Shown: in pieces, positions 2,855-42,277 of the stretch
How the letters are laid out: every line of letters starts with the position of its first letter
How positions within the stretch are numbered: the first letter of the stretch is position 1
Source: an uncultured Gammaproteobacteria bacterium
GTDB lineage: Bacteria > Patescibacteriota > Microgenomatia > PFEM01 > JAPLYW01
Assembly (NCBI GenBank): GCA_965230945.1
Contig: OZ246397.1
Coordinates: 374,284-438,283, forward strand
Direction of reading: 5' to 3'
DNA length: 64,000 nt
Notes under the pieces: generated by a model
The model's input: only the letters and a program-made list of their open reading frames with translations
The model's database searches: none
Told to the model about the DNA's origin: nothing
Program-made: the position numbers and the translations under genes

Positions 2855-2859
2855 CTTTA

Positions 2860-29507: not shown

Positions 29508-29769
29508 TCCGGCGTAGCTCAACGGTAGAGCGGATCCCTGTCAAAAGGCAGCCTTTTCCAGTAATGGGAAAGTGAAAATCGGGCTAATTCGGGGAACCCC
29601 TTTAACATTAAAGGGCAATCCCGAGCTAAATCATAATTTAAAATTATGTAAATGTGTAGAGACTATATACCCGGCTTCCTAAATTAGGAAGAAGAGATAG
29701 TCCAGACCTTTTGGTAACAAGAGGATTTCTGTAAGGATAAGGTTGTAGGTTCGAATCCTACCGCCGGAG
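29508..29769 (+). tRNA. tRNA-Asn (anticodon GUU) interrupted by a group I intron in the anticodon loop
   Basis: 5' exon 29508-29541 is TCCGGCG-TA-GCTC-AACGGTA-GAGC-G-GATCC-CTGT. 3' exon 29732-29769 is TAA-GGATA-AGGTT-GTAGG-TTCGAAT-CCTAC-CGCCGGA-G. Joined, the loop is CUGUUAA, the same as E. coli tRNA-Asn. Confidence 0.75.
29542..29731 (+). ncRNA. Group I self-splicing intron (ORF-less, ~190 nt) within tRNA-Asn
   Basis: P1 pairs exon CUGU with intron GCAG, giving a U.G pair at the 5' splice site. The P7 strands are AGACTA and TAGTC. A perfect P8 hairpin CTTCCTAAATTAGGAAG lies between them. The intron ends in G before the 3' exon. The element order P7-P3'-P8-P7'-P9 is as expected. Confidence 0.75.
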
Positions 29770-29784
29770 CTAGCTTCAGAAAAT

Positions 29785-29805
29785 CGCCAAAAAGGCGGTT
29801 TTTTG
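29785..29805 (+). terminator. Rho-independent terminator after tRNA-Asn
   Basis: Hairpin CGCC-aaaaa-GGCG followed by TTTTTT. Confidence 0.6.
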
Positions 29806-29819
29806 TTAGAATAAAACAT

Positions 29820-30143
29820 ATGGTTACTTTTGATGATTTTAAAAAACTTGATATAAGAATTGGTGAGGTTATTTCGGTTGAAAAAATTCCTAACACCGAT
29901 AAACTATTAAAATTTATTTTTGATATTGGTGATGAAAAGAGACAAATAATAGCAGGAATGGCTGATTTTTTCTCTGATATTTCTTCTTTAATTGGCAAGG
30001 AAATGCCTTTATTAGTTAACATTGAGCCTATGGAATTTAAGGGTCATAAAAGTGAGGGAATGATTATTGCAGCAGATGTTGATGGTAAACCTATTTTACT
30101 TCATCCTGAGAAAGAAATTCCTGCAGGTAGCATGGTTAAATAA
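29820..30143 (+). CDS. tRNA-binding domain protein (CsaA/Trbp111-like OB fold)
   Basis: FDDFKKLDIRIGEVISVEKIPNTDKLLKFIFDIGDEKRQIIAGMADFF...KSEGMIIAAD matches the CsaA/EMAP-type tRNA-binding domain. Confidence 0.75.
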   Translation: MVTFDDFKKLDIRIGEVISVEKIPNTDKLLKFIFDIGDEKRQIIAGMADFFSDISSLIGKEMPLLVNIEPMEFKGHKSEGMIIAADVDGKPILLHPEKEIPAGSMVK

Positions 30144-30149
30144 TAGCTA

Positions 30150-30185
30150 AACTAGTCCGAACATTGTCCACGAGGGGGAGCTAGC
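30150..30185 (+). repeat. Island repeat copy B (aactagtccgaacattgtccacgagggggagctagc)
   Basis: Member of a repeat family with 10 or more copies. It begins 7 nt after the stop codon of the preceding gene. Confidence 0.85.
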
Positions 30186-30331
30186 ATCCTATAAGATTGA
30201 CTTTTAGCTTCGTTAGTAGTATATTCTCTTCACTAGTAAACTCTGGTTTTCTTTAGCGAAAATTCAAGTAATTTACTTTTAACATAAATTTTTTAGCACA
30301 TTGGTATCAAAATATTTAAGAGAGGGAAGAA

Positions 30332-30592
30332 ATGGAACCACTTGAAAAACATTATTCACGATTATGTGTCAAGCTTTGTTTGTCAGTTGGGATTGTAATG
30401 ATACTTATCTCACTTGTGTTGATGGCAATATCTGTTGTCGATTTAGGTTTTTACGATTTAGGTTTCCCCCCCTTTCCCATTGACTTTTTAGTTGTTTCCT
30501 ACCTTAAGCTTTTCTTTTTAGTTGTAATTTTAGTTTTAGGGGCAACACTTTGTATTATTGGGGGATATGCTAAAGCAATAAGAGAAGATTAG
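30332..30592 (+). CDS. Small membrane protein (86 aa)
   Basis: Two hydrophobic helices. Confidence 0.4.
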   Translation: MEPLEKHYSRLCVKLCLSVGIVMILISLVLMAISVVDLGFYDLGFPPFPIDFLVVSYLKLFFLVVILVLGATLCIIGGYAKAIRED

Positions 30593-30729
30593 TATCAAGT
30601 TGCTTAGATTAAAGCAAACTAAATGATTAGATAAATCTTTAGAAATAGGATGTCTTGTGAGACTTAATTTTAGATTGTGGTAATAAAATACTACTTTTTA
30701 AATTTAAGCCTCCGGGACATCCTATTATT

Positions 30730-30793
30730 TTGCCTAAATTTATGCCCAACTAGTCCGAGCATCATCCACGATGGGGAGCTAGTTTCAGAAAGC
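30730..30793 (+). repeat. Island repeat copy C (extended form: ttgcctaaatttatgccc + core + tagtttcagaaagcc, followed by a weak hairpin)
   Basis: Core aactagtccgagcatcatccacgatggggagc at 30748-30779. It shares the 5' extension with copies E and I and the 3' module with copies A, D and G. Confidence 0.85.
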
Positions 30794-30834
30794 CTATAAA
30801 ATAGGGATCTTTTAGACTGTGTTAAAATAGATTT

Positions 30835-31239
30835 ATGAATACATACAATTGGTATTCACAATTAATTAAACCGAGTTGGGCACCGGCAAGTTGGCTTTTC
30901 GGGCCGGTATGGACGGTACTTTATGTGATTATTACTATCACTTATGGCACAGTTTTTTATAAAGCGTTTACAAAACAGATTCCTTGGATTATGACTTTGC
31001 CTTTTTTACTCAATCTATTCTTTAATTTTATTTTCACTCCAATTCAATTCGGGCTCAAAAACAATCTACTTGCGTCTCTTGATATTCTTCTCGTTATTGG
31101 TACTCTTATTTGGGCATTTTACGTTATTTGGAATAACGTGCCCGAATTACGCTGGGTCGTCTATGCTAATATTCCTTATCTCTTGTGGGGAGCATTTGCC
31201 ACTTGTCTTCAAATTACAATCACATATTTGAATAAATAA
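30835..31239 (+). CDS. TspO/MBR-family protein, N-terminally truncated relative to the paralog at 37515
   Basis: KPSWAPASWLFGPVWTVLY and the following TM helices match TspO. The first TM helix is missing. Confidence 0.65.
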   Translation: MNTYNWYSQLIKPSWAPASWLFGPVWTVLYVIITITYGTVFYKAFTKQIPWIMTLPFLLNLFFNFIFTPIQFGLKNNLLASLDILLVIGTLIWAFYVIWNNVPELRWVVYANIPYLLWGAFATCLQITITYLNK

Positions 31240-31242
31240 TTT

Positions 31243-31698
31243 ATGCGATTATGGAGTCTGCACCCCAAGTATCTTGACGCACTAGGCTTAGTAGCCGTTT
31301 GGCGAGAAGGTTTGTTAGCAAAAAAGGCTTTACAAAGTAGAACAAAAGGCTACACTAAACACCCACAACTTATCCGATTCAAAAATCATCATTCTCCCTT
31401 AAAAGCTATTGATTGTTATCTATCTCATATATTCTTTGAGTCTGAAAAAAGAGGCTATAAATTTGATAAAAGAAATATTAGTAAAGTATCTAAAAATATC
31501 AAGAAGATAGAAGTAACTTTAGGCCAAGTAGATTATGAATTTAATCATTTAAAAAACAAGCTGAGAAAAAGAAAATATAGTTTATACAAGAAAATAACTA
31601 AGAATGAAGAGATTAAAGTCCATCCATTATTTGTAACCGTTATTGGTGGCATTGAATCCTGGGAGAAGCAAAAATATACTATTTTTGCTAGTAAATAA
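31243..31698 (+). CDS. Hypothetical protein; N-terminus resembles pyrimidine-dimer DNA glycosylase-like (Pyr_excise-type) family proteins
   Basis: MRLWSLHPKYLDALGLVAVWREGLLAKKALQ...HPQLIRF. The assignment is from memory of the family motif. Confidence 0.4.
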   Translation: MRLWSLHPKYLDALGLVAVWREGLLAKKALQSRTKGYTKHPQLIRFKNHHSPLKAIDCYLSHIFFESEKRGYKFDKRNISKVSKNIKKIEVTLGQVDYEFNHLKNKLRKRKYSLYKKITKNEEIKVHPLFVTVIGGIESWEKQKYTIFASK

Positions 31699-31718
31699 GG
31701 TACTAATTATTTTCTAAA

Positions 31719-31910
31719 TTATTTTCTGCTCCAAGTTGTAAAAGCTAGATAAATAGCTGACAAACCAACTAAAACATAAACGATTCTAGATAAAAAAGAC
31801 ATTACCCCAAAAATAGCTGCCACCAGATCAAAATTGAAAAAACCAACCAATCCCCAGTTTAGTCCACCGACAATAACTAAAATCATAGCAATAGTAGATA
31901 TTACTTTCAT
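31719..31910 (-). CDS. DUF378-family small membrane protein
   Basis: VIVGGLNWGLVGFFNFDLVAAIFG...SRIVYVLVGLSAIY is the characteristic DUF378 pattern. Confidence 0.6.
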   Translation of the reverse strand: MKVISTIAMILVIVGGLNWGLVGFFNFDLVAAIFGVMSFLSRIVYVLVGLSAIYLAFTTWSRK

Positions 31911-31985
31911 TTTTTCTCACCCCCTTTCTCTAAAATTACCTCTGATTTAATCTTATCACAAAGTAGCTAATTTTAAATTTTTTCT

Positions 31986-32022
31986 AACATTGTCCGATAG
32001 GGGAGCTAGCTTCAGAAAGCCC
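31986..32022 (+). repeat. Island repeat copy D (5'-truncated core + tagcttcagaaagcc module)
   Basis: aacattgtccgataggggagctagcttcagaaagcc. Confidence 0.8.
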
Positions 32023-32040
32023 ATAAAATTGGGCTTTTTT
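32018..32040 (+). terminator. Rho-independent terminator (AGCCCA-taaaat-TGGGCT + T6) belonging to repeat copy D
   Basis: Perfect 6-bp stem plus a T-run. Confidence 0.6.
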
Positions 32041-32059
32041 ATTGTGATAGAATAATAAC

Positions 32060-32620
32060 ATGTTAAAAGTAGGAATAATTGGACCAACAAACATGCCGAA
32101 ATTGAGTAAGTTGATGAAAAAGCCAATTGACTTTCTTTTAAATAAGGCACAACTTGTAGGAAAAACTTTAGCTGAAACAAACTATGAATGTTGGATTAAC
32201 AGCGATAAGGGTATGTTAGTTGCTATTGGAAAGGCATATAAGAAATTTGGTGGTAAAAAACTTGTTATTTTATACCCCGGGAAAGGTGAACCTTGGCCAA
32301 AAGAACACACCAAACCTTATATTAAGTATGCCGATGAACTGAGGAAGGAAAGAAATTGGTTTTGGTCTAACTACAATGTAACCGCCCTGCCTGATGTATG
32401 TATTTGCGTGGGTCTTGGGGCTGGTGTTTTAAGTGAATTAGCTTATATTAAATGGAATTACACACTAAAATGCGGCAACCTTAAGAAGCTAATTGTGGTT
32501 AAGGAATTATTGAGTGGTGGCAAGTTTCCATTAGAAATAGAGGCTGATATAAAAAATATTATTCAATATGTTGAAAAAGTAGAAGATTTGAAGAAAGTTT
32601 TAGAAGAATTTAAAAACTAA
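32060..32620 (+). CDS. Hypothetical protein, possibly a remote LOG/SLOG-like Rossmann-fold protein
   Basis: N-terminal VGIIGPTN...CWINSDKGMLVAIGKAYKKFGGK resembles the nucleotide-binding LOG/DprA-like fold. The match is weak. Confidence 0.35.
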   Translation: MLKVGIIGPTNMPKLSKLMKKPIDFLLNKAQLVGKTLAETNYECWINSDKGMLVAIGKAYKKFGGKKLVILYPGKGEPWPKEHTKPYIKYADELRKERNWFWSNYNVTALPDVCICVGLGAGVLSELAYIKWNYTLKCGNLKKLIVVKELLSGGKFPLEIEADIKNIIQYVEKVEDLKKVLEEFKN

Positions 32621-32629
32621 TTTGTGCCC

Positions 32630-32661
32630 AACTAGTCCGAACATCGTCCACGATGGGGAGC
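32630..32661 (+). repeat. Island repeat copy E (consensus core aactagtccgaacatcgtccacgatggggagc)
   Basis: Begins 9 nt after the stop of the preceding gene and carries the tttgtgccc 5' extension. Confidence 0.85.
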
Positions 32662-32697
32662 TAGTTCCAGAAAACCTCTTTTTGTTATAATTACTCC

Positions 32698-33240
32698 ATG
32701 ATAACTATTATTTTTGAATCTCATGGAACAACTTATGATAGCGAAAAGAGCGTATCTTCAGGCCATGCCGATGCGAAATTATCCTCATTAGGGAAGAAAC
32801 AAGCGAAGGAACTAGGAAAAAGATATGAAGATAAAAATTTAGACGCTGTGTTTTGTTCAGATTTATCACGCTCCTATAAAACAGGCAAAATTGCTTTTAG
32901 AGAAAGGAATGTTCCCATAGTTAAGGATAAAAGACTCCGTGAATGTGATTATGGGGACTTAACTCAACACTCATCAAAAGAAGTAGAGCCTTTTAAAATA
33001 AAACACATAAAGACTCCTTTTCCAAATGGAGAAAGTTATGAACAAGCCGCTGAGAGGATGAGGAGTTTCTTGCAAGATTTACTTAAGGATTATGATGGTA
33101 AGACGGTCATGATTATTGGCCATCGGGCTACACAATATGGATTGGAACATTGGATAAAAGGCTTACCACTTAAAGATATTATTGTGATTCCTTTTAAGTG
33201 GCAACCTGGCTGGACTTACTGTCTAGAAAAGCTAAACTAG
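32698..33240 (+). CDS. Histidine phosphatase (phosphoglycerate-mutase-like) family protein with atypical SHG instead of RHG
   Basis: IIFESHGTTYDS...SSLGKKQAKELGKRY...DAVFCSDLSRSYKT; C-terminal IIGHRATQ. Confidence 0.55.
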   Translation: MITIIFESHGTTYDSEKSVSSGHADAKLSSLGKKQAKELGKRYEDKNLDAVFCSDLSRSYKTGKIAFRERNVPIVKDKRLRECDYGDLTQHSSKEVEPFKIKHIKTPFPNGESYEQAAERMRSFLQDLLKDYDGKTVMIIGHRATQYGLEHWIKGLPLKDIIVIPFKWQPGWTYCLEKLN

Positions 33241-33263
33241 TCCGAACATCGTCCACGAAGGGT
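33235..33263 (+). repeat. Island repeat copy F (3'-divergent); the stop codon TAG of the upstream gene lies inside the repeat
   Basis: aactagtccgaacatcgtccacgaaggg followed by a GC-rich unique segment. Confidence 0.8.
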
Positions 33264-33368
33264 ACCCCATCGAGGCCCTGCGTTACCAATAGACGAGGCG
33301 ACATCGGCTTCAGGACGCCAAAATGAGATGTTTAAGAATAAAGACAATTATGATAGAAGACGAGAAAA

Positions 33369-33983
33369 ATGGATAGACACATATTTCTAAAATGGCTTAA
33401 AATCAACGGTTTATGTTTTATAGGTGCCTTTATTGTAGTATTCCTTTTGGTCCAATTATTTCCCAATGTCATGCTCGGATTGTTAGGAAGATGGGCTTCT
33501 TTAATCGAGCTGGCAGGAGCTAAGAAGATGGCAGAACTTCCTTCCGATTTCGATGTATTCATTCACATACTCTCCAGAAATAGCGTCTCGATCTTCATTG
33601 TTTTTGTCATGGGACTACTCTTGCAGGCACCCATTTTGATGGTAGTGTTTGGTTCGTTCTATTCTCTTATAGCTTTTCTTGCCCCGCTAACGATAGGCAA
33701 AACCTTTGCCCTTGTCGATTGGATTCTAATTGCAACCGAAGCACTCTTCCTTACTATAACTGTAACTTTTTCATCAACTCTTGCTACGGAAATATTTGGA
33801 GCAAAACCGGAGAGAAAACAGTTATTAGAGTATTGGAAGAAGAATTGGAAGAAGTTACTCCCCAAGCAGAAAAGAAATTGGAGGATTGCATTCAAAGAAT
33901 GCAAAAAAGAATTCATTTTGTTTATCATAATAGTTTTAGCACTGCTATTGTTTGGAGCGTGGTTTGAAGTTTGGGGTTATTAA
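33369..33983 (+). CDS. Hypothetical polytopic membrane protein (204 aa)
   Basis: Five or more hydrophobic helices. Confidence 0.45.
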   Translation: MDRHIFLKWLKINGLCFIGAFIVVFLLVQLFPNVMLGLLGRWASLIELAGAKKMAELPSDFDVFIHILSRNSVSIFIVFVMGLLLQAPILMVVFGSFYSLIAFLAPLTIGKTFALVDWILIATEALFLTITVTFSSTLATEIFGAKPERKQLLEYWKKNWKKLLPKQKRNWRIAFKECKKEFILFIIIVLALLLFGAWFEVWGY

Positions 33984-34207
33984 AGTGAAAGGGTATCCCC
34001 TCGCCGACTCTCCGCTAGCGCTCGCTCCGCCCAAACCACCCTTCGGGTTGGCTTCCCCTGCATCAGCAATAAGAAATTTAACCTTGAGCTAAGGCTAAGC
34101 CAACCTGCAACCTCTTAATTTCCTCCCACCTAACTTTTATTAACTCCATTTGAACTGCATCCTCAAAAGCCCTTAAAATCTTGTTAATAGCGGTTATAAT
34201 AATCTTA

Positions 34208-34235
34208 GGACTAGGGAGTTAGCTTCAGAAAGCCC
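34208..34235 (+). repeat. Island repeat copy G (degenerate 5' part + tagcttcagaaagccc module)
   Basis: ggactagggagttagcttcagaaagccc. Confidence 0.75.
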
Positions 34236-34253
34236 ATTAAATTGGGCTTTTTT
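34231..34253 (+). terminator. Rho-independent terminator (AGCCCA-ttaaat-TGGGCT + T6) belonging to repeat copy G
   Basis: Near-identical to the terminator at 32018. Confidence 0.6.
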
Positions 34254-34272
34254 AATCTGGTAAAATAAAGAT

Positions 34273-34800
34273 ATGAAGATTGCTATTGGTTCTCAAAATC
34301 CAACTAAGATTAAGACTGTTGAGAAAGCTTTTGTTTGCTTTTGGCCTAAGAAGAAATTTAAGTTTATAGCTATTAAGACCAATTCTGGGGTAAAAGACCA
34401 ACCGATGTCTGATGAAGAATGTATTAAAGGGGCTGAAAATCGGGCTAAAGGTGCTCAAAGCCAAACCGATGCTGATTTTGGCGTTGGGCTGGAGGGGGGC
34501 ATAGTTGAAGTTAATAGAAAATATTTTACTAGAGCATGGATGGTTGTAATTGATAAGAAGGGAAAGATAGGCATTGGTTCTAGTATAAGTGCTCCTTTAC
34601 CGGATAAGTTTATGAAACTAATTCACAGTGGTTTAGAGCTGGGTGAGGTTGACGATATTATTACAGGAAGGAAGGATACTAAAAAGAAAAATGGTTATTT
34701 TGGTTTAGTTAGCGATAATTTGATTACTAGAGAAAAAGGATATTTTGATGGAATGATAATGGCTTTAGCTAAGTTCAAAAAAATTAAGCTTTTTCTCTAA
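34273..34800 (+). CDS. Non-canonical purine NTP phosphatase, YjjX/DUF84 family (inosine/xanthosine triphosphatase-like)
   Basis: IAIGSQNPTKIKTVEKAF, SGVKDQP...EE...GAENRA, GLEGGI and GYFGLVSDNLITREKGYFDGMIMALAKF align with the YjjX family. Confidence 0.75.
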   Translation: MKIAIGSQNPTKIKTVEKAFVCFWPKKKFKFIAIKTNSGVKDQPMSDEECIKGAENRAKGAQSQTDADFGVGLEGGIVEVNRKYFTRAWMVVIDKKGKIGIGSSISAPLPDKFMKLIHSGLELGEVDDIITGRKDTKKKNGYFGLVSDNLITREKGYFDGMIMALAKFKKIKLFL

Positions 34801-34832
34801 GACTAGTCCGAACATCGTCCACGATGGGGAGC
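34801..34832 (+). repeat. Island repeat copy H (consensus core); starts immediately after the stop codon
   Basis: gactagtccgaacatcgtccacgatggggagc. Confidence 0.85.
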
Positions 34833-34837
34833 AAATT

Positions 34838-34856
34838 CCCAGACGTCTGGATTTTT
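34838..34856 (+). terminator. Terminator-like palindrome CCAGAC-GTCTGG + ATTTTT following repeat H
   Basis: Perfect 6-bp palindrome plus a T-run. Confidence 0.5.
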
Positions 34857-34913
34857 AACTTCAAAATATTATTCCAGGGAAGGAGAATAGGATCTTAATC
34901 GCAATTGTAGAAT

Positions 34914-35408
34914 TTATTTTCGTTTTACCTGAGCGGGTTTAATAAATTTTATATATCCTAAGAAAAAGGAAACGACTAATCCTATGGAAACGACAATAAA
35001 TCTGAAGATATTATCATCACTTCCAAAACCCCTGATAATACTATAGATTAAAGTTAAAACACCTCCCAAAAGTAAACCATCCGCGATAATTAAAATCTTT
35101 TTGAATAAAGTTAAGCTGATAGCCAAGATTAAAATGGCTGCTATTAGAGACACAATAGAAATCTCTCTATTATACTTTTTAACTTGTGTTTGATAGACCT
35201 TTAGGTTTTTATCAAATTCTTCTTGCTCTTGTCGAATTTGACGCAAAGTTGCTTCGTCTGTTATTCTTTCGCAAATAGATTCTTCATGTTCAATTGAAAA
35301 AGGAACTTCTGGCCTCTCAGGGCCAGGATGAAAAGCAGCAATACCAACGCCAACAAAAGCAGCTAAAAGGACACCTGTGAACATAATATAGACAAATCTA
35401 AGAGCCAT
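34914..35408 (-). CDS. Hypothetical membrane protein (164 aa, 3 TM)
   Basis: ORF with hydrophobic helices and a charged loop. Confidence 0.45.
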   Translation of the reverse strand: MALRFVYIMFTGVLLAAFVGVGIAAFHPGPERPEVPFSIEHEESICERITDEATLRQIRQEQEEFDKNLKVYQTQVKKYNREISIVSLIAAILILAISLTLFKKILIIADGLLLGGVLTLIYSIIRGFGSDDNIFRFIVVSIGLVVSFFLGYIKFIKPAQVKRK

Positions 35409-35498
35409 CTTAAGAAAACTTTAGCAAAATTTTATTCTAAACGCAAATTAACTATGTCCAAGACGAACTAGGGTTTTTTGTTGCCTAAATTTGTGCCC

Positions 35499-35530
35499 AA
35501 CTAGTCCGAACATCGTCCACGATGGGGAGC
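35499..35530 (+). repeat. Island repeat copy I (consensus core with ttgcctaaatttgtgccc 5' extension from 35481)
   Basis: aactagtccgaacatcgtccacgatggggagc. Confidence 0.85.
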
Positions 35531-35651
35531 CAGACTGGATTGGCAGGTCGCAAATCGGGCGATTTTGCCAATATATCGGCATATTTGACAGGTTCGAGCG
35601 AGTCAGAATATTGTTCTTCAACAATAAATTATTTTGTGATAACATTAAAAT

Positions 35652-35978
35652 ATGGATATTTCAATTTTCTTTGCAAGACTTTGGGGTAGCTACTCAGTTA
35701 TTTTTGGATTGTTGTTCATAATAACTGGACAATTGGGTAAAACTATAGAGATGACCGATGATAAATCGTTTGTTATTTCTACTGGCTATATTACTTTGAT
35801 AATGGGTCTGGTTACGGCAATTTTACACAACGTTTGGGTCGCCGACTGGAGAGTTGCCATTACTATTTTAGGATGGTCTACTGTAATCAAGGGAATAATG
35901 AAAATTGGATTCCCTGAACAGATACACAAGCAGGCACAAAGATTCAAAAAAAACAAATGCTTAGCGCCGCTTTCATGA
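35652..35978 (+). CDS. Small membrane protein (108 aa)
   Basis: Three hydrophobic helices. Confidence 0.4.
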   Translation: MDISIFFARLWGSYSVIFGLLFIITGQLGKTIEMTDDKSFVISTGYITLIMGLVTAILHNVWVADWRVAITILGWSTVIKGIMKIGFPEQIHKQAQRFKKNKCLAPLS

Positions 35979-36149
35979 TTCTTCTAGGTACATGGCTTTT
36001 TTGGGTGAGTTTTTAGCTAACAATAATTCTGGATGCAAATATATTTACTTTGTTCCTGAATGGCGGTTCGAACATTTTCCATTACCCTGAGCTGAACCTA
36101 GAAAGTTCTGTTTTAAGGGCTTTTTTAGTCTGTGATAGAATGAAGTTAG

Positions 36150-36548
36150 ATGGGCAAAAAGGCAGTTGCAGCTATAGTTTACGATAAAAATTCTGGCCGA
36201 GTTTTAGTAGGCAGAAAAACATCTGATTCTAATGGTTCTCTTACTGGCCAATATCATTTACCTGGAGAAACAATAGAACCTGGTGAGTCGGATGAGGAAG
36301 CCCTAATAAGAGGCATGAAAGAGGAAGCAGGTATTGAGGTGAAGGTCTTGCGTTATTTAGCTTCGCACATAACTCCTAAGAAGACAAAAGTAAGATGGTA
36401 TGAATGCGAGCCGTTAAGTGATGATATATCTTTTGGCAGCGACTTAACCGAAGTTTTATGGGTTCCGAAAGAAAAAGTAATTCATATCTGTTCTTCCAAA
36501 TCTATCCTTCTATGGCCAAAAGAAATAAAAGAATACTTCTCTAAATAA
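36150..36548 (+). CDS. NUDIX hydrolase
   Basis: Canonical Nudix box GETIEPGESDEEALIRGMKEEAGIE. Confidence 0.8.
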   Translation: MGKKAVAAIVYDKNSGRVLVGRKTSDSNGSLTGQYHLPGETIEPGESDEEALIRGMKEEAGIEVKVLRYLASHITPKKTKVRWYECEPLSDDISFGSDLTEVLWVPKEKVIHICSSKSILLWPKEIKEYFSK

Positions 36549-36574
36549 TTCTAGAAATTATAGATTTAAAACAA

Positions 36575-36606
36575 AACTAGTCCGAACATCGTCCACGAGG
36601 GGGAGC
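36575..36606 (+). repeat. Island repeat copy J
   Basis: aactagtccgaacatcgtccacgagggggagc. The following gagccagttggaacttaatatacc is echoed at 38082-38107. Confidence 0.85.
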
Positions 36607-36689
36607 CAGTTGGAACTTAATATACCCAAGTTAGTCTTGAGACTTCTGATACATTTTTTATTCTAAACACTGAGGATTATAAATTTCTT

Positions 36690-37010
36690 TTGCTTGAGGT
36701 AAAATATAAGAAATCCACAAAAAAGGAGGTGAGTTTTTTGAGCGGAAAAAAACATTTTACGGCTGATGAAGCCAAAAAAATCGGCGAAGAGCTGGGTATT
36801 AAATGGGATAAGTTTGATGTTGAGCAGTTTAGACAAGGGATGGATGTGGAGTTAGAGCATGGCTTGGTTGACCCGCATACTAATGTCAGCAACGACGACC
36901 CTTTGGTCACCGGAAAAATTGCCCTGGCTCACCTTATTGAGTTTCCCGATTACTACACTAGGCTTGAAAAGATGGAAAGAGAAGCGGAAAATTATTGGAG
37001 TAAAAATTGA
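36690..37010 (+). CDS. Conserved hypothetical protein (106 aa; DVELEHG motif)
   Basis: Soluble ORF. Confidence 0.45.
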   Translation: MLEVKYKKSTKKEVSFLSGKKHFTADEAKKIGEELGIKWDKFDVEQFRQGMDVELEHGLVDPHTNVSNDDPLVTGKIALAHLIEFPDYYTRLEKMEREAENYWSKN

Positions 37011-37020
37011 ACTTTCGTCG

Positions 37021-37070
37021 TTTCCTCTCTCAATTCCTGCACAAATCTAAAATCTTCAAAAACCTTGATA
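37021..37070 (+). repeat. 50-nt direct repeat R2 copy 1 (tttcctctctcaattcctgcacaaatctaaaatcttcaaaaaccttgata)
   Basis: 48/50 identical to the copy at 37991-38040. It starts 11 nt after a stop codon. Confidence 0.85.
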
Positions 37071-37135
37071 TAGGTAAAGCCCTTGATTTAGTAAATGGAC
37101 TTTATAAATCAGACTAACTTGAGTAGAATAAACAC

Positions 37136-37513
37136 ATGGTTAAAAACTTTCTTGCAGCATTAATTATTTTTCTTGGGATTGATTTTTTGTGGTTAGGGGT
37201 AATTGCCAAAAACTTCTATAATAAACATCTTGGAGCCTTTGAAAGAACTATTAGTTGGCCAGCCATTGTTTTGGTCTATCTACTTATTTCTCTAGGGATT
37301 GTGCTTTTTGTTTTGCCAAAGGTTGGTGGGAATGTAAAGCTGGCTCTTTTTTGGGGAGCGGTTTATGGTCTGATAGTCTATGGAGTGTATGACCTGACAA
37401 ACTTAGCCACTCTTAAAAATTGGTCATTAACAATGGTTATAACTGATATGCTTTGGGGAATGTTTATTTGTGGATTTACAAGTTTTGTTGTTACTTATTT
37501 TCTGAATAAATAA
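37136..37513 (+). CDS. DUF2177-family membrane protein
   Basis: FLAALIIFLGIDFLWLGVIAKNFYNKHLG pattern with four TM helices. Confidence 0.5.
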   Translation: MVKNFLAALIIFLGIDFLWLGVIAKNFYNKHLGAFERTISWPAIVLVYLLISLGIVLFVLPKVGGNVKLALFWGAVYGLIVYGVYDLTNLATLKNWSLTMVITDMLWGMFICGFTSFVVTYFLNK

Positions 37514-37514
37514 A

Positions 37515-37973
37515 ATGATTAAACTTATTGCCTCAATCATTGTCTGCCAACTAACTGGCATTATTGGAGCTATTTTTACTACTCCTTCTATTTCTGGTTG
37601 GTATGCCGGCCTTAACAAGCCTTTTTTTAATCCACCCAATTGGCTGTTTGGTCCAGTTTGGACACTGCTTTATTTATTAATGGGAATTTCCTTATATTTG
37701 GTTTGGAAACAAAAAGGTGGAGCAGAAATAAGAACAGCCTTAATCTTTTTTACGATTCAATTGGGGCTTAACACTCTTTGGTCAATAATCTTTTTTGGCA
37801 TGCGCTTACCTTCAGTTGCTTTTATTGAAATTCTTATTCTTTTGGTTTTTATAGTTTTAACTATCATCAAGTTTTTTCCGTTATCAAAAGTTTCAGCTTA
37901 TCTATTAATCCCTTATCTTTTATGGGTAAGTTTTGCGAGCCTTCTAAACTTTTACATTGTTAAGCTCAACTAG
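37515..37973 (+). CDS. TspO/MBR-family tryptophan-rich sensory protein (full length)
   Basis: 152 aa with 5 TM helices. Motifs NKPFFNPPNWLFGPVWTLLY and LNTLWSIIFF. Confidence 0.8.
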   Translation: MIKLIASIIVCQLTGIIGAIFTTPSISGWYAGLNKPFFNPPNWLFGPVWTLLYLLMGISLYLVWKQKGGAEIRTALIFFTIQLGLNTLWSIIFFGMRLPSVAFIEILILLVFIVLTIIKFFPLSKVSAYLLIPYLLWVSFASLLNFYIVKLN

Positions 37974-37990
37974 GGAACTTATTTTTGCTA

Positions 37991-38040
37991 TTTCCTCTCT
38001 CAATTCCTGCACAAACCTGAAATCTTCAAAAACCTTGATA
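37991..38040 (+). repeat. 50-nt direct repeat R2 copy 2
   Basis: tttcctctctcaattcctgcacaaacctgaaatcttcaaaaaccttgata. Confidence 0.85.
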
Positions 38041-38305
38041 ATATGGGAAAAACTCTTGGTTATATTAAGGTTACGCTCTTCGAGCTAGTTAGAACTTAAT
38101 ATACCTAAAAATTGAAAATTTATGCAAATACCTGATTTAACCAAAGTAACCTGGCACCAGAGGGGCCACGTTCAGGAAGGATAGTTCTTCTTTTTGGCTT
38201 GGCCAAACACGGTTGGTTGGAATTCCATACTTGGTTTTAAAGCTATCATCAATCTTTATATTTTTGTAAGAGTGGATTTGATAGATTTAATGCTGGAGAA
38301 CTTTT

Positions 38306-38575
38306 ATGTTTAAGAATATTATCGCCCCCGTTCAGGCGTGGTTGCTTTCTCAAGGACGATGTGATGGTTGTGGTATGTACCTAAGAGAAGAAAAGATGAG
38401 AAGACAAAAAAATGGAATAAAGAGAATATCTTGCAGGTGTGGGCGAGTGTTTGTCTATAACCAAAAAACAAAAAAATATCATCGAATTTCCCCAAGAACA
38501 GGCTTTTATAAAAAGAGAAGAAAGTTTAGAGAACCCAGTGTTAGAAGCAAGCCATTAGTTGTCATGGGTGAATGA
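38306..38575 (+). CDS. Small basic zinc-ribbon-like protein (89 aa)
   Basis: CDGCG...CRCGRVF cysteine pairs in a K/R-rich protein. Confidence 0.4.
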   Translation: MFKNIIAPVQAWLLSQGRCDGCGMYLREEKMRRQKNGIKRISCRCGRVFVYNQKTKKYHRISPRTGFYKKRRKFREPSVRSKPLVVMGE

Positions 38576-38660
38576 GGTATAAGTTAGGGCAAAGAAACGA
38601 TTAGGAGATGGACTCTTATGTTAAAATAATATTTTAGCGTTAGAGAGGATTAGATAAATC

Positions 38661-39335
38661 ATGAGAGTCTTATTAATAGAAGACAATATAGAATTAGCGG
38701 ATATTACTGCACTGAATTTAAAAAAACACGGTTTTGCTGTAGATGTAGCCTATTCGGGAGATGAGGCGCTTCGCCTGTTTGAAGGTAATGGGGAATATGA
38801 TGTTGTAATTTTGGATTTAATTCTGCCTGATATTGAGGGGACAAAACTATTGCAAGATTTAAAATCGATGGTACAGAGTATTCCAGTGCTAGCTTTAACT
38901 GCCAGAGATGGCGAGGAAGATAGGGTTAACGGCATCCAAATGGGCTTTGATGATTATATGACCAAGCCGTTCTCTCATTATGAGTTAGCGGCAAGACTGA
39001 GGTTATTGATTCGTTCGCGACCTCATCAAGCTGGCGAAATAATAAAAATAGGTCCTCTCCAAATAAATTATAAAGAACAAACCACACTCATGAATGGACT
39101 TTCGGTAAAACTTACCCTCAACGAATTTCGCTTACTCCATTTTTTAGTAGAACATAAAGGCCAAGTAGTACCGATTGAGAAACTTATAAAATCAGTGTGG
39201 GACAGGAATGGAACTAATGAAAACGGAAAAGTTATTACCACTGTTTCAAGAGTGCGGGCAAAGATTGGTGACCACCGGAAAAAGATCATTAGAACTTATA
39301 AGAATGGCTATATTTTAGGAGAAACCAATGGTTAA
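38661..39335 (+). CDS. OmpR-family two-component response regulator
   Basis: Receiver domain (LLIEDN...DVVILDLILPD...LTAR) plus a winged-helix C-terminal domain. Confidence 0.88.
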   Translation: MRVLLIEDNIELADITALNLKKHGFAVDVAYSGDEALRLFEGNGEYDVVILDLILPDIEGTKLLQDLKSMVQSIPVLALTARDGEEDRVNGIQMGFDDYMTKPFSHYELAARLRLLIRSRPHQAGEIIKIGPLQINYKEQTTLMNGLSVKLTLNEFRLLHFLVEHKGQVVPIEKLIKSVWDRNGTNENGKVITTVSRVRAKIGDHRKKIIRTYKNGYILGETNG

Positions 39336-40038
39336 AAAACTTTTATTCATTGAAGATGAAGAGGAGTTCGCCAAGGTAGTTGCTTCATATTTAAGGAAGA
39401 AGGGGTTTAGTATTGTTCATGCTTTTTCAGGGCAGCAAGGATTACGTGAGCTGCAAAAGAACTCATACGACCTGGTGATTTTAGATTTGGGCTTACCTGA
39501 TGAAGATGGACTTAAGATGTGCGAAAAAATTAGAGAGAAAGAAACAACCCCAATTCTTATTCTTACCGCTAGGGATGGGTTTGAGGACAAAGTAGCCGGG
39601 CTTAACTTGGGTGCTGATGATTACCTAGTGAAGCCTGTTTCTCTAAGAGAGCTTGTGGTTAGGATCGAGCGAGTGCTTGATAGGGATTTGAAGACTAAAT
39701 TTCGTTCTTCAGTTTTTCAATTTGGGGGGCTAAAGTTCGACACAGTCACAGGTAAATTAACCTTAGAAGGTAAATCTGTGATGCTGACAAGAAAAGAAAA
39801 AACGGTTTTGGAGTATCTATTTCTGAAGAAAGGACAAGTCTTAACCAGAATGGAAATTATGGACCATGTTTGGGGTGACGATATTGATTTGTTGTCAAAC
39901 ATGCCCAATATGGTAATAAGTTCTCTGAGAAGGAAGTTGGAACGGCTGTCTAGGAGGAATTTTATCCAATCGGTACATGGGCTAGGATATAAGTTTGAGA
40001 TTGAAGGTTTGAGCAGTAGGGAGAAAAAACATGACTGA
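39328..40038 (+). CDS. OmpR-family two-component response regulator (second, tandem)
   Basis: Receiver domain (LLFIEDEEE...DLVILDLGLPDEDG...LTARD) plus a winged helix. Confidence 0.88.
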   Translation: MVKKLLFIEDEEEFAKVVASYLRKKGFSIVHAFSGQQGLRELQKNSYDLVILDLGLPDEDGLKMCEKIREKETTPILILTARDGFEDKVAGLNLGADDYLVKPVSLRELVVRIERVLDRDLKTKFRSSVFQFGGLKFDTVTGKLTLEGKSVMLTRKEKTVLEYLFLKKGQVLTRMEIMDHVWGDDIDLLSNMPNMVISSLRRKLERLSRRNFIQSVHGLGYKFEIEGLSSREKKHD

Positions 40039-41872
40039 TAAAGAACGAGTGCGCGATCTGATTGAAATAATCCACTTTACAGAGAATGTTTCTACGAAGA
40101 TATGTAACGTATTGGACGAAATGGAGATTTATAGAACCGTGATAGAGGAATTTAAAAAATCAAAACGGTACTCCACCAGCATTGCGTTGTTAACAGATGA
40201 CAAGTCAAAGCTAAGGATCGTGGGGATATCATTAACTTCTGAGAAGCTGAAGAGAAGGGAAAGGGCGGTCGGGCTCCAGTTGAAAAAGTACCAAATCGAC
40301 TTAGGTAAATCAAGTATCTACCGTCAGGTCGTAAGGGAAGGAAAAACTATCCAAGCCAAGGATAGCGATATAATAGACGAGTTGCTTCCACAACCACTAG
40401 CCTATCTAATATCAAAAACAATGGGCTATGAGAAGAAGAGAAGTATCTTGACGCCCTTGAGACGGAATAGAGAAATTATAGGTGTCTTCGCTATGTCTTC
40501 CACAGAACTGTCAGATTGTTTGATTCCCTCTGTGAAGAATTTCACCCGACACATTTCGGCTGCTCTGGAGTTAGCTGATGAATGTGCCCAGCGCAAGCGA
40601 ATAGAAGAAGCCCTGCGAAAAGCTCATAGTGAGTTAGAAAGGAAGGTTGAGGAGCGAACTACGGAACTTTTAAAATCCAATTTGCTTCTGAAACAGGAGA
40701 TTGCCGAACGTAAACGGGCAGAAAAAGCCTTAGGAGAGAGTGAAAAGCGTTACCGCATACTTGCCGAGTCAGCAGAGGATTTTATTTTTATAGTCAGTAG
40801 TAAGGGGCATATCCAGTATCTTAACTCTTCAGCTGCGAGGATATTAAAATCTTCGGTGAAAAAGATTACCTGTAAGTCTATAGAAGAAATTTTTCCCTTA
40901 AAGGAATTCAAAAAATTTAAAAACAATCTGAAATTGGTTTTTAAATTGGGCAAACCTATTTTAACCATTGGTAAGATAACTATAAATAACAAAAAACTCT
41001 GGCTGGAGACTCGGTTAGCACCCTTCATAAATAATGGAAAGATAGAAGCAGTGATGGGTATCTCACGGGACATAACGGAACACAAACAGGCAGAGAGGGC
41101 GTTAAAAAAGAGCAAAGAACAGCTTAAGGCGTACTCCGAGGTTTTGGAAAAAACAGTTGAAGAAAGAACAGAGAGATTAAGCCTCATCGTTGAGTCTCAA
41201 AAGGAATTTATCGCTGGAGTCGGCCATGAAATAAGAACTCCTCTCTCAGTTATAAAAGCAGTCATCGAGGCGGGGTTGGATGGTAACGGTGTCCTCTTTA
41301 CAACTGAACAATTAACCCTTGTGGATAAGAAGGTAGATCAAATTACAAAGATTCTAAAAAACTTACTATTAATGTCTAGGCTGGATCTCGGTCAAGAACA
41401 AGTTCAAAAAACAACATTTAAGATGGAGTACTTAATGAAAGAAGTTTTAAGTGATGTAGTTAGTGAAGTTGAAAGAAACGGTATAAATCCAGATGTAAAG
41501 ATTAGTTGCCGCAAAGATATTAAGCTAGTTGGTGATAGGGAGAAATTATATATAGTGATGAGAAATTTACTAAATAATGCAGTATCCCATTCGGATTATA
41601 AACCCCGTATTTCTTTGAAAGTAGAAAGATATGAGGATAGCATTCAAATAACTATTAAGGATAATAATCAGCCATTACTAAAGGAAGAGCTACCAAAACT
41701 TTTTGAGAAGTTTTATAGAATCAAAAAAACGAAAAATAGAAGCTCTAGTTTAGGACTGGGATTATATATTTCTAAAAAACTGGTTGAGCTTATGGGGGGT
41801 AAAATCTGTGCGGAAAGTAAAAACGATGGTAATAGTTTCGTTGTCCAGCTCCCGATTCCCCAAGTCTCCTGA
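40031..41872 (+). CDS. Sensor histidine kinase (cytoplasmic; sensory + PAS + HisKA + HATPase_c)
   Basis: H-box FIAGVGHEIRTPLSVI, N-box LLNNAVSH and G-box GLGLYISKKLVELMGGKI. There are no TM helices. Confidence 0.85.
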   Translation: MTDKERVRDLIEIIHFTENVSTKICNVLDEMEIYRTVIEEFKKSKRYSTSIALLTDDKSKLRIVGISLTSEKLKRRERAVGLQLKKYQIDLGKSSIYRQVVREGKTIQAKDSDIIDELLPQPLAYLISKTMGYEKKRSILTPLRRNREIIGVFAMSSTELSDCLIPSVKNFTRHISAALELADECAQRKRIEEALRKAHSELERKVEERTTELLKSNLLLKQEIAERKRAEKALGESEKRYRILAESAEDFIFIVSSKGHIQYLNSSAARILKSSVKKITCKSIEEIFPLKEFKKFKNNLKLVFKLGKPILTIGKITINNKKLWLETRLAPFINNGKIEAVMGISRDITEHKQAERALKKSKEQLKAYSEVLEKTVEERTERLSLIVESQKEFIAGVGHEIRTPLSVIKAVIEAGLDGNGVLFTTEQLTLVDKKVDQITKILKNLLLMSRLDLGQEQVQKTTFKMEYLMKEVLSDVVSEVERNGINPDVKISCRKDIKLVGDREKLYIVMRNLLNNAVSHSDYKPRISLKVERYEDSIQITIKDNNQPLLKEELPKLFEKFYRIKKTKNRSSSLGLGLYISKKLVELMGGKICAESKNDGNSFVVQLPIPQVS

Positions 41873-42245
41873 GAGAGGAAACCAATCAATATAGTCTCCT
41901 TTATACTTTTGTAAGGACTGTTTTGGGATACTTCGTAGTATGAGTAGAAGAACAATGGCCACAGCAACTCCTAGAAGCTTTAATATCCCAATAGACAAGT
42001 TAACTAAGAAAACTGGAGTCACTTCTTTGATTGAGACAAAGATTTCCAAAAATATCCCTCGCAGGGTGAAAGAAAGTCTTTTTGCCCAAATTATAATGTT
42101 TCTTTTTCATGAACCCTTATGAGTTGCCGTCTTAAAATCTGATTCAAAATTGCGGGTCCCAGGTTGGAATACAACCCACCCCAGGTTTTGGGGAGACATT
42201 AAAAACAAGACTTCCTACTTGGGACCCGGTTGATTGTTGTGAGAA

Positions 42246-42277
42246 GACTAGTTCGAACATCGTCCACGATAGGGAAG
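42246..42277 (+). repeat. Island repeat copy K (most degenerate; candidate distal island boundary)
   Basis: gactagttcgaacatcgtccacgatagggaag. Confidence 0.7.

Follow-up and report, generated by a model that had tools for sequence, protein, structure and literature searches.

A hypervariable array of gene cassettes at the 3' end of tRNA-Asn in a Microgenomates bacterium, probably served by a recombinase in trans

Bacteria of the candidate phyla radiation (CPR) have tiny genomes and, in the general view, few mobile elements. How do they acquire and trade accessory functions? One locus in a 64,000-nt stretch of contig OZ246397.1 (assembly GCA_965230945.1, positions 374,284 to 438,283 of the forward strand), which we call the window, raises this question directly. 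Here an intron-split tRNA-Asn gene is followed by a row of small genes punctuated by copies of a 32-nt repeat, the unit. A first-pass annotation, made from the letters of this DNA, had read the row as an integron-like array left by serial site-specific integration at the tRNA 3' end. What kind of system is this, and what moves its parts? The probable answer, in our view, is a hypervariable platform for gene cassettes that is anchored at the tRNA-Asn 3' end and uses an enzyme acting in trans, a large serine recombinase being the most likely candidate. The window matches the JGI contig Ga0111034_1264064. The closest named homologues of the window's RpoD belong to Candidatus Shapirobacteria and to 'Patescibacteria group', and the host, judged by its genes, is a Shapirobacteria-like CPR bacterium of the Microgenomates group.

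The conserved unit is the 32-mer AACTAGTCCGAACATCGTCCACGATGGGGAGC. Its edges are abrupt: across all non-redundant copies, from the window and from related contigs, information content rises sharply at AACTAG and drops sharply past GGGGAGC. The palindrome GCTAGC, which had been taken for a boundary of the repeat, lies outside this stretch. Among the units, 37 exact 32-mers and 72 exact 23-nt cores were found, compared with flanks that are 65-78% identical. A search of the window with a 30-nt pattern (at most 3 mismatches) returned 7 copies, compared with 0 expected from 100 dinucleotide-preserving shuffles. A profile search found eight full units, all on the plus strand (30150, 30748, 32630, 33235, 34801, 35499, 36575 and 42246; E values 1e-13 to 5e-11), and four decayed copies are also present (31975-32006, 34209-34219, 36065-36092 and 38082-38085). 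The first-pass annotation had counted ten copies and a partial echo; eight of these are full, those at 31986 and 34208 are genuine copies, though degenerate or incomplete, and the echo at 38082 comes down to GAGC and a recurrent cassette start. All units lie on one strand between the intron-split tRNA-Asn and a conserved RRM gene. In the remaining ~51 kb of the window (the first 29 kb and the last 21 kb) the profile search gave no significant match on either strand, as had been claimed.

The unit often follows closely on a gene. It begins 0-10 nt past a stop codon at 30150, 32630, 33235 and 34801, but not, as had been supposed for all copies, at 30748, 35499, 36575 and 42246. A terminator module (TAGCTTCAGAAAGCC followed by a T-run) stands directly after the copies at 30748, 31986 and 34208 and weakly after 32630; of the three copies to which it had been assigned, the one at 31986 has it, the one at 32630 has it weakly, and the one at 34801 lacks it. 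A consensus terminator scan missed these GCCC...GGGC-T6 modules, which are known from direct reading of the sequence. The hairpin ATCGTccACGAT that had been proposed within the unit lacks covariation support: no compensatory changes are seen in the short form, and 17 of its 39 unique sequences break the A13-T24 pair, so we do not claim a functional hairpin. Some units are longer, with 22-25 nt or as many as 52 nt inserted in the centre. These long variants all retain both conserved ends, and the CATCG...CGATG stem is extended around a variable centre. In one long variant (L001 at 2941; L023 at 99, 1659 and 2340; L053 at 1912; L058 at 2577, 4006 and 4913; L numbers denote loci on other contigs) the 25-nt insert GGGTTCGATTTCACTCACCATAAAT resembles a T-arm plus an ACCA end; possibly a further tRNA-like fragment lies within the unit here.

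Beyond the window, we searched viral contigs, 185,579 species-representative genomes and metagenome contigs with the degenerate core ACTAGTYCGARCATYRTCCACGA. It was found in 59 metagenome contigs from 41 datasets and matched the species-representative genomes twice, both times near contig ends and once in a mis-binned metagenome-assembled genome (MAG). There were 0 matches in the viral contigs. A phage or plasmid origin of the unit was rejected after 0 matches in IMG/VR contigs, INPHARED phages and PLSDB plasmids. With the profile, 120 copies were counted in 61 loci on as many contigs, with mixed orientation in none; 33 loci hold at least two copies (92 copies in total), and on an 864-kb contig exact matches are confined to one place. 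The median length of the 67 non-redundant intervals between units is 832 nt (interquartile range 673-1225), and 42 of them contain exactly one open reading frame (ORF) of at least 50 aa; of 110 ORFs, 94 run in the direction of the unit. The stop codon of the upstream ORF lies inside the unit at 26 of 116 junctions, 17 times as the TAG of AACTAG.

The unit is also restricted to one locus. All unit-bearing contigs with recognisable context carry the window's upstream or downstream flank, as seen by blastn and protein comparison: dnaG, rpoD and tRNA-Asn upstream; an RRM protein, HAD, abhydrolase, GT2, Rrf2 and Aminotran_5 downstream. tRNA-Asn lies upstream of the units and in the same orientation in every locus that contains it (13 loci), and 0 copies occur in the conserved flanks of L064, L067, L069 and L071. 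On the 61 unit-bearing contigs the unit is thus not dispersed; genome-wide dispersal was the first of two outcomes that the first-pass annotation had named as contrary to its reading.

The second was fixed cassette content, and this was not found either. L064, L067, L069 and L071, whose RpoD is 88-94% identical to that of the window, have the same flanks and the same unit with unrelated genes between them; L046 likewise has conserved flanks around a different interior. Relatives therefore carry different cassette sets at their tRNA-Asn loci, which had been suggested as a check. The array of L067 is only 4.4 kb. In the more distant L072 (RpoD 79%) an intron again splits tRNA-Asn, and the units, although diverged, have kept GGAGC as their end. 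Long contigs of independent assemblies (61.7 kb from JGI, 83 kb and 325 kb from NCBI, 78 kb from ENA) have different arrays between the same flanks. The last unit of the window, copy K, had been proposed as the distal end of the island, and the relatives bear this out: their homology resumes about 55 nt further on.

Turnover is visible even between strains. Two blocks match between L046 and L064: 1,764 nt in the upstream flank, at 97.9% identity, and 4,177 nt in the distal array, at 99.5%, the second of which starts exactly at a unit. The stretch between them contains, in L046, an uninterrupted tRNA-Asn followed by three cassettes and, in L064, a tRNA-Asn with the intron and a single cassette unrelated to those three; the cassettes in which these two strains differ are the tRNA-proximal ones only. 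L017 and L067 also part at the edge of a unit. When the 80-nt flanks of 104 junctions were clustered, they fell into 87 upstream and 82 downstream clusters, with one flank in common in 22 pairs and both in 14. The cassette pool looks very diverse on these counts.

Where do the cassettes join? Cassette starts that follow the tRNA (after CCGCCGGAGC) belong to the same classes as those that follow the unit (after GGGGAGC), and they align without gaps, in register from GGAGC on. The tRNA junction of L035/L050 is identical to the unit junction of L008 at 50/50 nt, and that of L056 to the unit junctions of L061 and L033, again at 50/50. The tRNA junction of L071 matches the unit junction of L055/L021 at 46/50, that of L069 matches L001 at 45/50, and that of the window matches L024 at 44/50. 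L056 and L061 are 99.4% identical over 1,189 nt from GGAGC on, whereas upstream of it L056 has the tRNA and L061 has a unit preceded by at least three cassettes. In all, at least five unrelated cassette-start classes meet the tRNA at the identical nucleotide. Because only 5 nt are identical at these junctions, site-specific exchange is favoured over homologous recombination. The comparative data, that is, the turnover between relatives and the in-register starts after tRNA or unit, support site-specific accretion of cassettes, in agreement with the serial integration first proposed.

The units themselves also appear in recombined forms. The unusual 3' ends CTAGGGGGAGC, GAGAGGGAGC and GATAGGGAAC move with the downstream cassette, and hybrid (chimeric) units exist, for example in L029 at 2184. 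We tried to map one crossover point from polymorphisms within the unit and abandoned it when the signals proved inconsistent (positions 22-24 versus GGAGC). In L018 (146-171, oriented) a true partial tRNA-Asn 3' fragment, AAGTTCGAATCCTACCGCCGCAGC joined to TAGCTTCAGAAA, stands in the array in place of the unit. Such a fragment would be exactly what a classical att duplication leaves.

Which enzyme could make such junctions? The first-pass annotation had advised a search for a tyrosine recombinase; the comparative data point instead to a large serine recombinase (LSR). In L074, L075, L076 and L077 an LSR of about 500 aa (Resolvase, Recombinase and Zn_ribbon_recom domains) is convergent to tRNA-Asn and overlaps its 3' end. 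RpoD of L074 and L075 is 74-77% identical to that of the window. L076 is closer (RpoD 87%), keeps the upstream synteny and has a tRNA-Asn 3' end identical to the window's; its element starts with AAGTTAG directly after CCGCCGGAGC, the same point at which cassettes start. Among the best 120 homologues of the recombinase, C-termini read as the reverse complement of the tRNA acceptor and T-arm, and those with named hosts are all from Patescibacteria or Microgenomates. The sole homologue found on viral contigs, L078, is itself integrated, at tRNA-His, and a free attP on viral contigs was dropped as a candidate.

The relation between the unit and the tRNA also bears on the enzyme. When the unit is aligned with the 3' half of tRNA-Asn of the type seen in L074/L075 or in L073, it scores 20/27 matches with a single 5-nt gap, compared with at most 16 for any other gap length; 2 and 7 of 2000 shuffles did as well. 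This gap test was post hoc, and its signal is for the tRNA type of other lineages and not for the window's own. The derivation of the unit from tRNA-Asn, claimed in the first-pass annotation, holds in this modified sense: the supported source is the 3' half of another lineage's tRNA-Asn, and derivation from this genome's own tRNA was rejected because the alignment is no better than with shuffles. In serine integrases, attB half-sites have the distal zinc-ribbon-domain (ZD) motif 5 bp nearer to their centre than attP half-sites do (PMC3783163). Given this 5-bp shift and the 5-nt offset between unit and tRNA, the unit resembles an arm of the attP type, and the tRNA half one of the attB type. Serine-integrase att sites are short (40-50 bp) and have a small identical core; the shared core GGAGC and the sharp optimum at a 5-nt gap agree with this pattern.

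Three further observations concern this recombinase family. L073 has an uncalled LSR-like ORF or pseudogene (1319-2497, minus strand; 28% identity to the recombinase P0174 over 403 aa, E 2e-46) next to a tRNA-Ser(gga) gene (956-1045), and the family appears, from its neighbours, to use several tRNA genes in CPR genomes. A tblastn search of the arrays with P0174 at E<=10 returned no recombinase relics. The start module CAGTTGGAACTTAATATACC, found at 36607-36629 and 38086-38108 of the window and in L002, L004, L072 and L073, bears a suggestive resemblance to the 3' end of the recombinase gene, and is too short for significance.

Based on these data, we propose a model for the platform. About twelve small cassettes (across all arrays, 0.83 kb at the median and usually with one gene) lie head to tail, each closed by a 32-nt unit. 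The unit, built from a tRNA-Asn 3' half plus a 5-nt insertion, would act as an element-borne half site of the P-arm type, and the tRNA 3' half as the chromosomal half site of the B-arm type. Strands would be exchanged within GGAGC, the core of both half sites, and the GGAGC at the tRNA 3' end would be the primary attachment point, comparable to attB or attI. Circular cassettes, in which the unit is joined through GGAGC to the cassette start, would insert next to the tRNA and displace older cassettes distally. Recombination of unit with unit would yield chimeric units, deletions and reshuffling. The enzyme would be supplied in trans, most likely an LSR of the family that adjoins the same tRNA-Asn junction in relatives, and the platform may still be active.

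We also put forward, with some hesitation, a broader proposal that may or may not hold as a whole. In this proposal the locus would be a previously undescribed gene-capture platform of Microgenomates, a functional equivalent of the integron that was built independently from a serine integrase and a tRNA attachment site. Single-gene cassettes that express themselves would carry only a ~27-nt attP-type half-site plus GGAGC, the LSR, which would insert, excise and exchange them at tRNA-Asn, would come in trans from transient helper elements, and the cassettes would give these minimal genomes a shared pool of accessory genes with fast turnover. In full-text literature searches neither the motif nor the concept turned up for CPR bacteria, and the system appears to be undescribed.

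Several points weigh against our model. Neither the window nor any unit-bearing contig (~330 kb in all) encodes a recombinase, be it tyrosine, serine, HUH or any other class; the first-pass annotation had likewise seen no integrase in the window. Recombinase and unit never share a contig, and the long array contigs were not matched among the best 120 recombinase homologues. Apart from GGAGC the unit has no significant similarity to the host's own tRNA-Asn. The exchange point varies: positions 22-24 track the downstream cassette, the tRNA junction needs GGAGC, and one pair switches at the 5' edge of the unit. Canonical serine integrases recombine attP with attB only. Reuse of an occupied site and exchange between units would require a permissive enzyme, as in the staphylococcal cassette chromosome (SCC), or a directionality factor; the Ccr enzymes of SCC are permissive enough to use occupied sites. 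Last, the long-range order of cassettes in short-read contigs is possibly in part chimeric, a caveat of which the local junctions and the comparisons of long contigs are independent.

Could the enzyme be of another kind? An unlinked tyrosine recombinase, Xer-like or integron-integrase-like, could in principle serve the same architecture, with the unit perhaps folded into a hairpin as attC is, and we consider this unlikely. The long variants, with variable centre and conserved ends, do keep and extend the CATCG...CGATG stem in an attC-like manner, but the hairpin shows no covariation and its A13-T24 pair is often broken, as noted above. Tyrosine integrases are classic at tRNA 3' ends, yet none was found at this site in any of about 80 loci, and 5 nt of identity between tRNA and unit is short for the identity segment of such an enzyme. 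Chimeric sites also result from integron cassette integration (PMC4889954), but the R/L-box signature (RYYYAAC/GTTRRRY) is missing from the unit, and the 5-nt spacing points to serine integrases.

The variable exchange points within units, together with an array that has no linked recombinase, could also mean that there is no dedicated enzyme. The units would then be short portable homologies, possibly with another primary role, RecA-dependent exchange or gene conversion would follow DNA uptake, and whole alleles of the locus would be replaced through its flanks. We judge this slightly less likely again. The difference between L046 and L064 spans the tRNA intron, and a single replacement with crossovers in rpoD and a unit is possible there; the GC content of the array (36.4%) equals that of its flanks; and a type IV secretion system (T4SS)-like or DNA-transfer cluster lies nearby. 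Against this, homologous recombination cannot make junctions in which at least five start classes meet one exact tRNA nucleotide with 5 nt of identity. It also leaves unexplained the sharp edges of the unit, its conservation far above that of its flanks, and its design as a tRNA half plus 5 nt. In our view homologous recombination or gene conversion is probably superimposed on exchange at the units.

It is improbable that the unit acts chiefly in RNA, as tRNA-like punctuation or as an element of 3'-end processing or stability, with the genomic pattern secondary. The unit does derive from a tRNA 3' half, is found directly behind stop codons, on the strand that encodes 85% of cassette ORFs, and can be predicted to fold into a small hairpin, but many units sit between upstream and downstream terminator-like hairpins seen on direct reading, and the unit is restricted to one locus and does not occur at other operons. 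No unit matched Rfam at the gathering threshold or at E<=1, and with no covariation in the hairpin a structured RNA identity was ruled out; the identities at DNA junctions would be left unaccounted for as well. Least credible of all is a generic intergenic repeat (repetitive extragenic palindrome (REP), miniature inverted-repeat transposable element (MITE) or terminator) or an artefact of metagenome assembly, for although the unit is short and intergenic, many contigs end at units and one contig (L001) is clearly mis-binned, the copies in the window, the relatives' flanks and the 61 contigs are clustered and co-oriented only, never dispersed and never mixed, independent long contigs hold different arrays between the same flanks, and the local junctions are much shorter than a read pair. 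A platform worked in trans by a serine recombinase remains the reading that we prefer. The parts of the array in the window are as follows.

29508 to 29541, plus strand: tRNA-Asn(GUU) exon 1; spliced in silico, 72/73 identical to L046
29542 to 29731, plus strand: group I intron in the anticodon loop of tRNA-Asn (Rfam RF00028, 81.5-81.9 bits)
29732 to 29770, plus strand: tRNA-Asn exon 2; ends in GGAGC (29766-29770), the core in common with the unit
29771 to 30149, plus strand: cassette 1; terminator and TAGAAT promoter-like module, tRNA_bind (CsaA-like) gene 29820-30143 (Pfam 4.7e-23)
30150 to 30181, plus strand: unit A, full, 2 mismatches
30182 to 30747, plus strand: cassette 2; promoter-like TTGACT-17-TATATT (30197-30225), 86-aa membrane ORF 30332-30592
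30748 to 30779, plus strand: unit B, full
30780 to 31974: cassette 3; N-truncated TspO 30835-31239, Pyr_excise 31243-31698, DUF378 31719-31910 (minus strand), by Pfam
31975 to 32006, plus strand: unit C, degenerate (AAATTTTTTCTAACATTGTCCGATAGGGGAGC)
32007 to 32629, plus strand: cassette 4; terminator and promoter module, weak SLOG-like gene 32060-32620
32630 to 32661, plus strand: unit D, exact consensus
32662 to 33234, plus strand: cassette 5; His_Phos_1 gene 32698-33240, its stop codon being the TAG of the next unit
33235 to 33266, plus strand: unit E, 5' part intact, 3' box decayed
33267 to 34208, plus strand: cassette 6; 204-aa membrane ORF 33369-33983 between two GC-rich stretches
34209 to 34219, plus strand: remnant of unit F, GACTAG joined to GGAGT with the centre deleted; terminator module next
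34220 to 34800, plus strand: cassette 7; NTPase_I-T (YjjX-like) gene 34273-34800
34801 to 34832, plus strand: unit G, exact core
34833 to 35498, minus strand: cassette 8; 164-aa membrane protein 34914-35408, minus strand
35499 to 35530, plus strand: unit H, exact core
35531 to 36064, plus strand: cassette 9; 108-aa membrane ORF 35652-35978
36065 to 36092, plus strand: decayed unit, newly added, GGTTCGAACATTTTCCATTACCCTGAGC, then the TGAACCTAGAAAG module, a terminator and TAGAAT
36093 to 36574, plus strand: cassette 10; NUDIX gene 36150-36548
36575 to 36606, plus strand: unit I, 1 mismatch
36607 to 38081, plus strand: cassette 11; start module CAGTTGGAACTTAATATACC, DUF5661 36690-37010, DUF2177 37136-37513, TspO 37515-37973
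38082 to 38108, plus strand: remnant J, GAGC and the recurrent cassette-start module TAGTTAGAACTTAATATACC
38109 to 42245, plus strand: cassette 12, large; 89-aa ORF, two OmpR-type response regulators, PAS histidine kinase
42246 to 42277, plus strand: unit K, the terminal copy, 3' box decayed (GATAGGGAAG); the conserved flank resumes ~55 nt downstream

The gene identities proposed in the first-pass annotation were upheld by Pfam (tRNA_bind, two TspO, Pyr_excise, DUF378, His_Phos_1, NTPase_I-T, NUDIX, DUF2177, two response regulators and the PAS histidine kinase), which also recognised DUF5661. Its observation that a stop codon lies within the unit at 33235 was correct as well, and its inclusion of the response regulator and histidine kinase genes in the island agrees with their absence from the relatives' arrays. 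Many parts of the window's cassettes recur elsewhere. The start module of cassette 1 is found after units in L024, L069, L003, L012 and L040, that of cassette 2 after tRNA-Asn in L069 and L071, and the TGAACCTAGAAAG module behind full units in L010 and L023. The end of the cassette 5 gene recurs in L024 and L061, with different cassettes behind it. The cassette 8 protein is common to the arrays of L023, L046 and L064 at 73-83% aa identity, and homologues of the cassette 9 ORF occur in L021 and L071. The recurrent start modules consist of a GC-hairpin with a T-run and either TAGAAT or TTGACT-17-TATATT, all as consensus-level matches by direct reading; many cassettes look as if they were expressed from such promoter-like and terminator-like modules of their own.

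Some features of the array stand apart. A 50-nt direct repeat (96% identical; 37021-37070 and 37991-38040) flanks the DUF2177-TspO pair in cassette 11 and has no copy in any related locus. The pair looks like a separate insertion or duplication that did not use the 32-nt unit. The two TspO genes (30835-31239, N-truncated, and 37515-37973) form one paralogous pair, and another consists of the weak SLOG-like cassette gene at 32060-32620 and a strong SLOG (LDcluster4) gene at 50419-50982 in the core genome. Three stretches of 53% GC lie in the 36% GC array (33255-33335, 33980-34110 and 35525-35600; predicted folds of -19 to -32 kcal/mol), two of them bordering the 204-aa membrane ORF; none has an Rfam match or a copy in any related locus.

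The anchor tRNA has a history of its own. Its two exons (29508-29541 and 29732-29770), once joined in silico, make up a tRNA-Asn(GTT) that agrees with an uninterrupted orthologue at 72/73 positions. ARAGORN overlooks this gene and all other intron-bearing copies because the 190-nt intron splits the anticodon loop. The intron is present in the window (29542-29731), L064 (11183-12101), L067 (11174-11381) and L072 (11532-12037) and absent from L046, L071, L056 and others. L046, with an intact tRNA, and L064, with the intron and a 224-aa ORF, are ~98-99% identical elsewhere. This distribution suggests that the group I intron is mobile, and a homing endonuclease is possibly involved.

The surroundings of the array can be described briefly. 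The window starts with dnaA and dnaN, which places the array ~30 kb from the replication origin. Sites of the dif/Xer type (integrative mobile elements exploiting Xer (IMEX), pdif) were rejected, as the array is not at the terminus, the units are all direct, compared with the alternating orientation of plasmid dif-like sites, and they have no two-arm symmetry, only a 5-bp palindrome, compared with a 28-nt site with two 11-nt Xer arms. Next to dnaA-dnaN lies the T4SS-like cluster (1814-9178, minus strand), which encodes an M23 peptidase protein of 899 aa, a P-loop ATPase resembling VirB4/TraG, a PrgI-like protein and a number of large ORFs without a Pfam match; it may have a bearing on how the host lineage exchanges DNA. 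In apparently more distant lineages the neighbours differ: L005 has tRNA-Lys(ctt) (81-154) 2 kb upstream of a unit at 2118, a convergent tRNA-Leu(caa) abuts the last unit in L027/L054 (4726-4858), and nusA-infB lies downstream in L039 (5858-9559). The platform may occur elsewhere in different contexts or at other tRNAs. MAG labels in the host group are inconsistent, with RpoD homologues also labelled Nevskiaceae and Bathyarchaeia, and an array contig with four units (L001, CAYSAA010000227.1) was binned in an 'Atribacterota' MAG. Hypervariable array contigs appear to be prone to mis-binning.

The locus is a dedicated, conserved hotspot, where even strains of ~99% identity differ through turnover of one-gene cassettes. 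Its cargo, across the arrays, includes NUDIX, TspO, phosphatases, nucleases, methyltransferases, GNAT and Macro proteins and many unknown membrane proteins. If the proposed mechanism is true, it would be an independent solution to the problem that integrons solve, made from a tRNA-derived site and, probably, a serine recombinase. For metagenomics, arrays of this kind account for assembly breaks and mis-binned MAGs at such regions, and the compact att site and its integrase, as a pair, could serve genome engineering.

How does the platform compare with known systems? It resembles integrons, and attC-site clusters that have no integron integrase (CALINs), in its unidirectional, mostly single-gene cassettes that each end in a recombination site, in the placing of new cassettes next to the primary site, in chimeric sites and sites that often overlap the end of an ORF, in a very large and mostly uncharacterised cassette pool and, as in CALINs, in the absence of a neighbouring integrase (PMC4889954). 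At least two co-oriented, site-bounded and mostly single-ORF cassettes, the number that defines a CALIN, are present. The differences are equally clear. Integron arrays adjoin IntI with its specific insertion, whereas no PF00589-type protein or XerD/Cre-like ORF occurs in the window or in 61+ related loci. attC is 57-141 nt long, is defined by structure and has R''/L''...L'/R' boxes, whereas the unit is 32 nt long, is conserved in sequence and shows no boxes on reading. The primary site is the tRNA 3' end instead of attI, the candidate enzyme is a serine recombinase, and where integron cassettes rely on the cassette promoter Pc, many cassettes here have their own promoter-like and terminator-like start modules (consensus matches). 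A classical integron was ruled out by the absence of IntI and of the attC signature; what stands of the integron-like label is the co-oriented, site-bounded array.

In composite SCC islands, too, elements accrete serially behind a single conserved gene, at its 3' end, with short direct repeats between segments, some segments that have no recombinase and depend on one in trans, and large serine recombinases as enzymes (PMC7029136). They differ in having multi-gene segments of 5-60 kb at rlmH with 18-nt repeats, compared with one-gene cassettes of ~0.8 kb at tRNA-Asn with a 32-nt tRNA-derived unit, in belonging to another phylum, and in having a ccr-like gene in at least one segment, where no recombinase gene has yet been seen within an array here. 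Tycheposons and other tRNA islands are likewise seeded at tRNA genes, in streamlined genomes with otherwise few mobile elements, and their tandem integrations push older elements inward and leave partial-tRNA repeats between them (10.1101/2020.12.28.424599). Tycheposons, however, are multi-kb elements with their own tyrosine recombinase and replication genes and ~40-nt exact partial tRNAs, one or two per genome, whereas here a dozen integrase-less single-gene cassettes carry a modified tRNA half (+5 nt) that has 5 nt in common with the host tRNA; the phylum, too, is another. Serine-integrase prophages and elements are linked to the platform by the same LSR family at the same junction in L074-L077 and by the geometry of attP and attB half-sites; they are single, exceed 10 kb and bring restriction-modification and replication genes and their own enzyme, whereas the window has only mini-cassettes. 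By analogy, then, the platform is closest in architecture to the composite SCC islands, is also close to tRNA-seeded islands, and in function is like an integron or CALIN.

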